A stretch of 64,000 bases of DNA, taken from Chloroflexota bacterium (lineage in GTDB: Bacteria > Chloroflexota > Anaerolineae > B4-G1 > SLSP01). Positions 52,178 through 52,445 of this stretch are shown in pieces. Within the stretch, counting starts at the first letter, position 1. Each line of letters opens with the position of its first letter. The notes under the pieces were generated by a model. That model saw nothing but the letters and a program-made list of their open reading frames with translations, did no database searches and had not been told where the DNA came from. Location: assembly GCA_019873725.1 (NCBI GenBank), contig JAIOAS010000001.1:40257-104256 (forward strand), read 5' to 3'. The position numbers were made by a program, and so were the translations under genes.

Positions 52178-52343
52178 AAGAAAACGAAAAAGGGGAGGAC
52201 GCGGGATAGTTCCCGTGTCCTCCCCTTTTATTCTCCGCGCGGTGTTACCCGGTCAGAGCGCCGCAGGCTTGGAGGTTCCTGCGGTTTGGAGCCGAAGCCC
52301 CGGACTTTTCGCGCCTGGATGGTGATGCTGTATCCAGGTGTTG
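52178..52343 (-). ncRNA. candidate structured leader RNA / small RNA, copy 2
   Basis: Bounded by the promoter at 52351-52380 and the terminator at 52187-52229. Core CGCGAAAAGUCCGGGGCUUCGGCUCCAAACCGCAGGAACCUCCAAGCCUGCGGCG is conserved with copy 1, with loop-only variation. 5' hairpin CCUGGAUACAGCAUCACCAUCCAGG. Confidence 0.5.
52187..52229 (-). terminator. rho-independent terminator / attenuator hairpin (same stem as 38546-38590)
   Basis: AAAAGGGGAGGAC-loop-GUCCUCCCC, followed on the minus strand by UUUUUCGUUUUCUU. Confidence 0.7.
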
Positions 52344-52350
52344 TACATCT

Positions 52351-52380
52351 ATTATACCATATTCAGACCTTGAATTGCAA
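52351..52380 (-). promoter_or_regulatory. sigma-70-like promoter (TTGCAA-18-TATAAT) on the minus strand
   Basis: Reverse complement reads TTGCAA ttcaaggtctgaatatgg TATAAT. Confidence 0.55.
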
Positions 52381-52445
52381 GGGGAAATCGCCTTGATTTT
52401 AATCTCGCAACAGGCCGTTTTCTCTGACCGGGATCAAAAATGTAA

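Follow-up and report, generated by a model that had tools for sequence, protein, structure and literature searches.

An uncatalogued family of predicted operon-leader RNAs in Anaerolineae

The 64,000-nucleotide stretch of Chloroflexota DNA analysed here (that is, the window; contig JAIOAS010000001.1) carries two related units in which a promoter and a predicted structured RNA precede protein-coding genes. The unit under study (copy 2) lies on the minus strand at 52380–52181 and runs from its promoter through an RNA of approximately 155 nt with five hairpins (H1–H5) into a gene, with the following features.

52375–52380, minus strand: −35 hexamer (TTGCAA), inside the palindrome CCTTGCAATTCAAGG
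52351–52356, minus strand: −10 hexamer (TATAAT), with an upstream TG (extended −10) and a spacer of 18 nt
52184–52344, minus strand: predicted leader RNA of copy 2 (type A); covariance model match at 52184–52331, E = 4e-28; predicted fold of −78 kcal/mol, z = −7.0 against dinucleotide shuffles
52314–52338, minus strand: hairpin H1 (CCUGGAU/AUCCAGG), variable
52288–52301, minus strand: hairpin H2 (GGGGC-UUCG-GCUCC), with a loop conserved in structure only (UUCG, UACG or UAAAC)
52261–52284, minus strand: hairpin H3 (CCGCAGG-AACCUCCAAG-CCUGCGG), with a nearly invariant stem (78 distinct copies) and a C-rich CCUYC loop
52233–52258, minus strand: hairpin H4 (CUCUG...CGGAG), variable
52187–52229, minus strand: H5, an intrinsic terminator with a 19-bp G+C-rich stem (outer 13 bp invariant, inner 5–6 bp covarying) followed by UUUUUCGUUUU
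51688–52089, minus strand: gene for a 133-aa protein with roughly four transmembrane segments (4-TM), with a Shine–Dalgarno sequence GGAGGA at 52098–52103 and a start codon 97 nt past the copy 2 U-tract
47653–51603, minus strand: gene for a 1316-aa protein with a C-terminal P-loop, second in the conserved block

The copy 2 promoter is close to the sigma-70 consensus and is the sole promoter-like site within 51500–53000; we infer that transcription starts approximately 7 nt past the −10 hexamer and that the RNA ends within the U-tract, the arms of the terminator stem being AAAAGGGGAGGAC (5′ arm, 52229–52217) and GTCCTCCCCTTTTT (3′ arm, 52200–52187). The palindrome around the −35 hexamer recurs among type A copies: at 52372–52386 a near-perfect palindrome, CCTTG(A/C)AATTCAAGG, overlaps the type A −35 hexamer and has equivalents at loci L002, L014, L045, L061 and L062, and type B promoters carry CATG-N5-CATG in the spacer in its place. 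Both elements could be operator sites. In the stretch between the copy 2 terminator and the gene there are three ACAGGAU motifs 9 nt apart (52151–52175, minus strand) and a complementary AUCCGGU at 52131–52137; these motifs, which might represent a protein-binding site or an alternative set of hairpins, are kept in most loci with a 4-TM gene and are missing from L017 and L149, where the gene begins 25–43 nt past the terminator.

The interval from the copy 2 terminator to the 4-TM gene contains no promoter-like site. The product of this gene had been read as a four-segment membrane protein in the first-pass annotation of this DNA, and its sequence of 133 aa, in which about four hydrophobic stretches can be recognized, bears this out; comparison with Pfam and NCBIfam gave no match. 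The 1316-aa protein encoded next resembles NF033849 over its full length (E = 3e-105, with a score below the curated cut-off of that family) and has no Pfam match and no PDB sequence match; the gene for a bDLD1 protein lies downstream of it. Copy 1, the other unit in the window, stands at the head of a Tad-type pilus operon (about 22.4–38.5 kb).

38543–38730, minus strand: copy 1 unit (type B), with the RNA at 38694–38543 and the terminator at 38590–38546
38730–38701, minus strand: copy 1 promoter (TTGATT-18-TATAAT)
37939–38520, minus strand: gene for a DUF4352 lipoprotein-like protein, beginning 25 nt past the copy 1 terminator

The DUF4352 gene is the first of this operon, which also encodes TadE-like proteins, two T2SSF proteins, a prepilin-peptidase-like protein, a T2SSE ATPase and TadZ/ParA-like proteins. 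Inside the operon, a 265-aa open reading frame (ORF; 33164–33961) with a ‘Recombinase’ domain (PF07508) only overlaps the ORF of the T2SSE ATPase and may be the remnant of a serine recombinase.

Copies 1 and 2 align at 76% identity across the whole unit, with no differences in H2, H3 or the outer 13 bp of the terminator stem; the sequence changes in H1, H4 and the inner part of that stem leave the pairing intact. The conserved core that the first-pass annotation had ascribed to both copies is real. Its description of the promoters as sharing one architecture holds for TTGCAA-18-TATAAT in copy 2 but not for copy 1, in which the −35 hexamer is TTGATT, and the terminator stems that it called identical are so in their outer 13 bp but differ by compensatory changes in the inner stem. 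A covariance model built from other loci recovers both copies (E = 4e-28 for copy 2 and 2e-52 for copy 1), and the fold of copy 1 has z = −7.9 relative to shuffles. With the filters of the search switched off, this model detects no copies beyond these two in the 64-kb window; a near-match at 40135 was rejected as a third copy given that it sits within a coding region. The terminator 13-mer taken alone is weak evidence, with four matches and 4 of 100 shuffles doing as well.

Between the two RNA copies lies a complete diversity-generating retroelement (39291–47226), the parts of which are given below.

42301–42421: template repeat (TR)
39318–39438: first variable repeat (VR1)
44194–44314: second variable repeat (VR2)
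42459–42818: bAvd gene
42921–43976: reverse transcriptase (RT)

The variable repeats lie at the 3′ ends of two genes with NACHT and FGE-sulfatase domains (916 and 1019 aa), and within the repeat core all differences between TR and VR fall at template adenines (minus-strand reading). A BREX type 4-like defence cluster occupies 3592–19273 and comprises a BrxL Lon-like protease (4766–6193), a PglZ-like protein (6190–8388), proteins of 1401 and 1145 aa, a PAPS-reductase-domain protein (13858–14682) and two DUF4007 proteins. ‘Conflict system’ genes, which are typical of multicellular bacteria, are dense at 47045–47527 and 52446–63948 (Trypco2, EAD9-CHAT, EAD9-bDLD1, a 1231-aa NB-ARC-TPR protein, vWA, an AAA ATPase and EAD9-iSTAND), and the bDLD1 protein named above is counted among them.

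Copy 2 is a member of an uncatalogued family of predicted operon-leader RNAs that belongs to the Anaerolineae (Chloroflexota) so far as the taxonomy of its carriers is known. Comparison of the whole window with Rfam 15 (cmscan) gave no match at the gathering threshold, and at E ≤ 10 either copy yielded only spurious hairpin matches to the terminator (miRNA precursors, STnc320 and patAB), far below threshold; a search of the literature for RNA motifs described from Anaerolineae or Chloroflexi returned nothing relevant. Copies were collected through two sequence-anchored scans and one protein-guided look-up, the genome and metagenome scans together contributing more than 100 further copies, at least 78 of them distinct. 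The genome scan, in which each GTDB species was represented by a single genome and the pattern rested on the 3′ side of H2 and on H3, returned 68 loci, 29 of which are true copies, the rest being chance matches in coding DNA of other phyla; all 29 come from metagenome-assembled genomes (MAGs) of Chloroflexota or Anaerolineae, including genomes labelled Pelolinea and Thermoflexus, with up to 6–7 copies per MAG. The metagenome scan, which was independent and anchored on the terminator arms only, returned at least 120 loci. Among the matches listed, 80 are long-stem terminators, and the RNA core lies upstream in 75 of these; the other long-stem matches listed are a 5′-truncated copy (L157), one that is ended by a contig edge and three unrelated hairpins. 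A further 41 of the listed matches represent an unrelated hairpin with a loop of 8–11 nt (9 nt in 37 of the 41). Given that the long-stem terminator nearly always occurs with the RNA core, it belongs to the RNA, and the notion of a generic, reused terminator, which the first-pass annotation had named as the observation that would undo its proposal, fails. A blastn comparison of the leader RNA with 50,697 phage and 72,556 plasmid records gave no match, nor did a pattern search of IMG/VR, and on these grounds a phage, plasmid or viral origin was rejected.

To describe the structure, a model (R1) was made from 41 type B sequences with the structure set by hand, and all loci were realigned to it, giving at least 101 full-length matches (at least 78 distinct). 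In the resulting alignment, which is fitted to the model itself and consists of mutually related sequences, standard pairs fill 93.6% of cells, versus 84.2% in column shuffles and 36–53% with slid partners, and 21 pairs are changed on both sides (6 of 6 in H1, 9 of 10 in H4, 4 in inner H5 and 2 in H2). Compensatory changes therefore back four of the five helices (that is, H1, H2, H4 and inner H5); among the H2 stems, the variants GCGGGC/GCCUGC and GCCCC occur in L146, L168, L183 and L137. The H3 stem has zero variation in 78 distinct copies and hardly any is seen in the outer terminator stem (GGGGAGGAC/GUCCUCCCC), with H1, H4 and the inner terminator stem varying, an apparent invariance that is partly biased because the copies come from two sequence-anchored scans; H3 is invariant in the search anchored on the terminator, and the outer terminator stem is invariant in the search anchored on H3. 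For H3, a compensatory change of the stem is found in two divergent leaders, in which the canonical CCGCAGG/CCUGCGG is replaced by CUGCGGG/CCUGCAG (L149) and CUGCGGG/CCCGCAG (L189). The second of these, which was found via its protein without the RNA pattern, retains the promoter, a GAAAAAGG-H2 segment, a hairpin resembling H3 (its loop again C-rich) and an H4, and ends in a long terminator with the outer stem GGGAGGA/UCCUCCC. In predicted folds the H3 loop is AACCUCCAAG or AAGCCUUCAAG, and this CCUYC-containing loop of 10–11 nt is the most conserved single-stranded element of the RNA. The RNA of each unit measures about 150–160 nt and comprises five hairpins. Throughout the family (75–78 distinct copies), the terminator has a stem of 19–20 bp (about −30 to −33 kcal/mol) with 6–8 T in the next 9 nt, and the near-consensus sigma-70 promoter is conserved as well.

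No ORF is conserved within the RNA (the best candidate peptide is shared by no more than 10 of 78 copies, and type A copies lack one), and a leader peptide was rejected on this basis. Some copies record rearrangement: paralogues have exchanged parts (L120 joins the 5′ half of type B to the H4, terminator and spacer of type A, and L088 is the reverse), the L157 copy is truncated inside H4, and at L057 the promoter and H1–H4 are fused, without the terminator, to a gene for a 1094-aa protein that we take to be type IIG methyltransferase-like from its N-terminal sequence. The 3′ end of L057 folds no better than shuffles (z = −1.6); it was rejected as an alternative expression platform, and this locus is therefore probably a fusion event.

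The first-pass annotation described a structured leader or sRNA module with a promoter and a terminator, upstream of a gene; such a structured RNA family is indeed real, and a co-oriented gene lies 3′ of every untruncated copy. With gaps of 20 to about 200 nt, these genes (about 90 loci) fall into five main classes: the 4-TM protein (29 loci listed; gap of 20–110 nt), the DUF4352 lipoprotein-like protein (25 loci listed; 24–25 nt in all 25), a 72–97-aa protein (18 loci listed; 25–33 nt in 13 and 111–116 nt in 5), a secreted protein (9 loci listed) and one further class (5 loci listed). The shortest gaps, 20–45 nt past the terminator, occur in three of these classes, and rearranged exceptions are a truncated 4-TM gene (L175) and a transposase-like ORF inserted downstream (L179). 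The 4-TM gene keeps its leader even where identity of the protein has fallen to 63% and the leader itself has diverged strongly (L189 and L149). At L190–L192 (4-TM homologue P0010, 77% identity), the 4-TM gene is found within an operon, 10 nt past genes for 68-aa and 388-aa proteins, with no leader directly upstream, and the contigs stop before the start of the operon.

At other loci, operons that begin with the leader encode a large serine recombinase, an FtsK/SpoIIIE translocase, a DnaB-type helicase together with an AAA_25 protein, or a Replic_Relax protein. The envelope and membrane theme suggested in the first-pass annotation thus does not hold for the family, and the common denominator is instead a mobile-element-like gene set. 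Loci are homologous from the promoter onwards, with mutually unrelated genes upstream of it, so that the RNA marks the 5′ edge of a conserved block. Taken together, the leader-headed operons look like what an integrative and probably conjugative element would carry, a reading that fits the 82–92% nucleotide identity of the conserved blocks between species-level MAGs. No regulator gene is consistently adjacent to the leader, the upstream ORFs being heterogeneous, and the idea that a small ‘ILARRGR’ protein might be an N-like arginine-rich RNA binder stays speculative given that its motif is not consistently arginine-rich.

We suggest that the leader acts as a promoter-proximal attenuator that gates its operon in modules of the integrative/conjugative type, a proposal drawn from sequence comparison and, in our judgement, about evenly poised between right and wrong. 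As in attenuators, the RNA occupies a 5′ leader position, is co-oriented with the gene, has no intervening promoter in the window spacer and ends in an intrinsic terminator. Transcription from the strong promoter would normally end at this terminator and release a short stable RNA, and the operon would be expressed only upon read-through by RNA polymerase, so that all modules would share one attenuation checkpoint. Given that many loci have no room for a second promoter, the downstream operons would be transcribed by read-through and the short RNA would be the default product. Read-through would probably be controlled by a trans-acting factor that recognizes the invariant H3 hairpin. Such a factor is the likely controller because an RNA antiterminator helix is not detectable (the best pairing between the terminator 5′ arm and the upstream RNA reaches −10.9 kcal/mol, versus −11.3 kcal/mol with shuffled upstream sequence), and H3 is the best candidate for the recognition element because its stem and CCUYC loop stay constant while the neighbouring helices drift. 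The lack of above-chance upstream pairing also argues against a riboswitch-type attenuator and against a zipper attenuator as in pLS20; a 5-bp pairing of the H3 loop with the GGAGG of the terminator 5′ arm is possible and does not exceed chance. A terminator stem of unusual length (15 bp) confers resistance to the processive antitermination system conAn of pLS20 (PMC10325885), and the 19–20-bp stem of the leader may thus be hard to bypass. A more specific and decidedly tentative version, which we consider rather doubtful, is that the RNA serves as the recognition element of a dedicated antitermination/attenuation circuit that coordinates a new family of integrative/conjugative elements of Anaerolineae (that is, their integration, replication, DNA transfer, Tad pilus and membrane ATPase), with an element-encoded factor binding H3 and overriding the long-stem terminator. 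The abundant terminated RNA might have a trans-acting role as well, such as immunity or dosage control.

This last thought shades into an alternative that is possible if somewhat improbable, namely that the terminated transcript of approximately 155 nt is itself the product, a multi-copy trans-acting sRNA the H3 loop of which (CCUCC/CCUUC, anti-Shine–Dalgarno) pairs with the ribosome-binding sites of targets, the link to the downstream gene being incidental or the locus having a dual function. The strong promoter of its own, the very efficient-looking terminator, the discrete size, the several paralogues per genome and the missing antiterminator helix would all suit an sRNA, as would the fact that the most conserved single-stranded element is a C-rich loop with CCUYC, complementary to GGAGG. 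However, a co-oriented gene follows every untruncated copy, often within 20–45 nt and without another visible promoter, and the H3 loop pairs with the initiation regions of the genes behind it (−11.6 and −11.2 kcal/mol) no better than with those of 47 other genes of the window on average (−11.7 and −11.8 kcal/mol). The roles of attenuator and trans-acting sRNA are compatible with each other. We regard it as unlikely that the unit is an unregulated dampener or insulator, in which a fixed, leaky terminator would hold costly mobile-element genes at constant low expression and block read-in from upstream, with the hairpins only stabilizing the RNA or aiding termination. Neither an antiterminator nor an adjacent regulator was found, the upstream context is highly variable and integrative and conjugative elements (ICEs) such as Tn916 have insulating terminators (PMC11658703), all of which such a device would accommodate; yet an insulator alone has no need of four additional conserved hairpins, and the sequence-invariant stem and loop of H3 across paralogues diverged to about 75% identity would go unexplained.

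The remaining two explanations fare worse. A riboswitch that senses a metabolite or second messenger, with the terminator as expression platform, seems very improbable: the RNA does occupy a 5′ leader position before several unrelated gene classes with a terminator at its end, and L057 joins the same 5′ domain to another 3′ end and another gene, but the hairpins form a linear row with no multi-helix junction and no closing P1, no competing antiterminator is present, no known riboswitch model matched even at E ≤ 10 and the shuffle-like 3′ end of L057 has the look of a fusion. Least credible, and already contradicted, is the idea of a dispersed DNA repeat (MITE- or REP-like) or a generic reused terminator rather than an RNA gene. 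Multiple copies of about 200 bp with inverted repeats would be in keeping with it; against this, the units always face the same way with respect to recurring families of downstream genes, four separate hairpins carry compensatory changes, the promoter is conserved and, among the matches listed, the long-stem terminator almost never occurs without the core.

Anaerolineae, which are filamentous and for the most part uncultured, abound in wastewater reactors, sediments and hot springs, and to our knowledge almost nothing is known about their gene regulation and mobile elements. The family would add to the catalogue a new structured leader RNA, repeated at the heads of mobile-element modules in a poorly studied phylum. 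If the attenuator reading is true, one RNA module heading every major operon of the element would amount to a compact switch for horizontal gene transfer in Chloroflexota. The H3 hairpin and the long-stem terminator would provide a concrete handle for finding the controlling factor, and the leader RNA is a convenient sequence marker with which to locate such elements in metagenomes.

Several known systems share parts of this arrangement. The Listeria LhrC1-5 RNAs, the streptococcal csRNAs and RsaE/RoxS expose CU-rich loops complementary to Shine–Dalgarno sequences and, as here, are encoded by several paralogues per genome with their own promoter and terminator; their genes, however, are not obligatorily fused upstream of protein operons, and there is no sequence relationship. 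In type III toxin–antitoxin loci (ToxI repeats, terminator, toxN), in which the terminator sets the ratio of RNA to protein, a promoter, a non-coding RNA and an intrinsic terminator likewise precede a promoterless protein gene, but tandem RNA repeats are absent here, and one specific RNA–protein pairing is implausible given that the downstream proteins come from at least five unrelated families. The antitermination leaders of lambdoid phages (in lambda, PR′-6S RNA-tR′ with Q, and the boxB hairpins of nutL and nutR with N) are similar in architecture, with a strong promoter and a short terminated transcript before mobile-element operons, termination by default and a conserved RNA hairpin repeated at the head of more than one operon; they differ in that no boxA/boxB-like consensus and no Q or N homologue was identified here, and in that the terminator of the present family is part of the repeated unit, which occurs in about 5–7 copies rather than 1–2.

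HK022 put, Bacillus EAR and Tn916 canT are likewise structured leader RNAs that stand before intrinsic terminators in mobile elements or long operons. EAR is presumably among the Rfam models, none of which reached E ≤ 10 here save for spurious hairpin matches. In Tn916, insulating terminators are combined with the cis-acting RNA canT (PMC11658703). None of these three RNAs is joined to a single, fixed terminator, and the likeness is one of architecture only. The conjugation operon of pLS20 opens, as the conjugation-type operons here appear to, with a long structured leader and an intrinsic terminator that serves as attenuator (zipper-type cATT, with conAn; PMC13401043, PMC8191782). The zipper attenuator requires upstream sequence complementary to the terminator (PMC13401043), whereas in the present leaders such complementarity does not rise above chance; moreover, a conAn1-like gene was not identified here, and the pLS20 host is a Gram-positive Bacillus, not a member of the Chloroflexota. 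By its layout the family resembles the leader–terminator checkpoints of phages and ICEs, and it shows none of their testable defining features.
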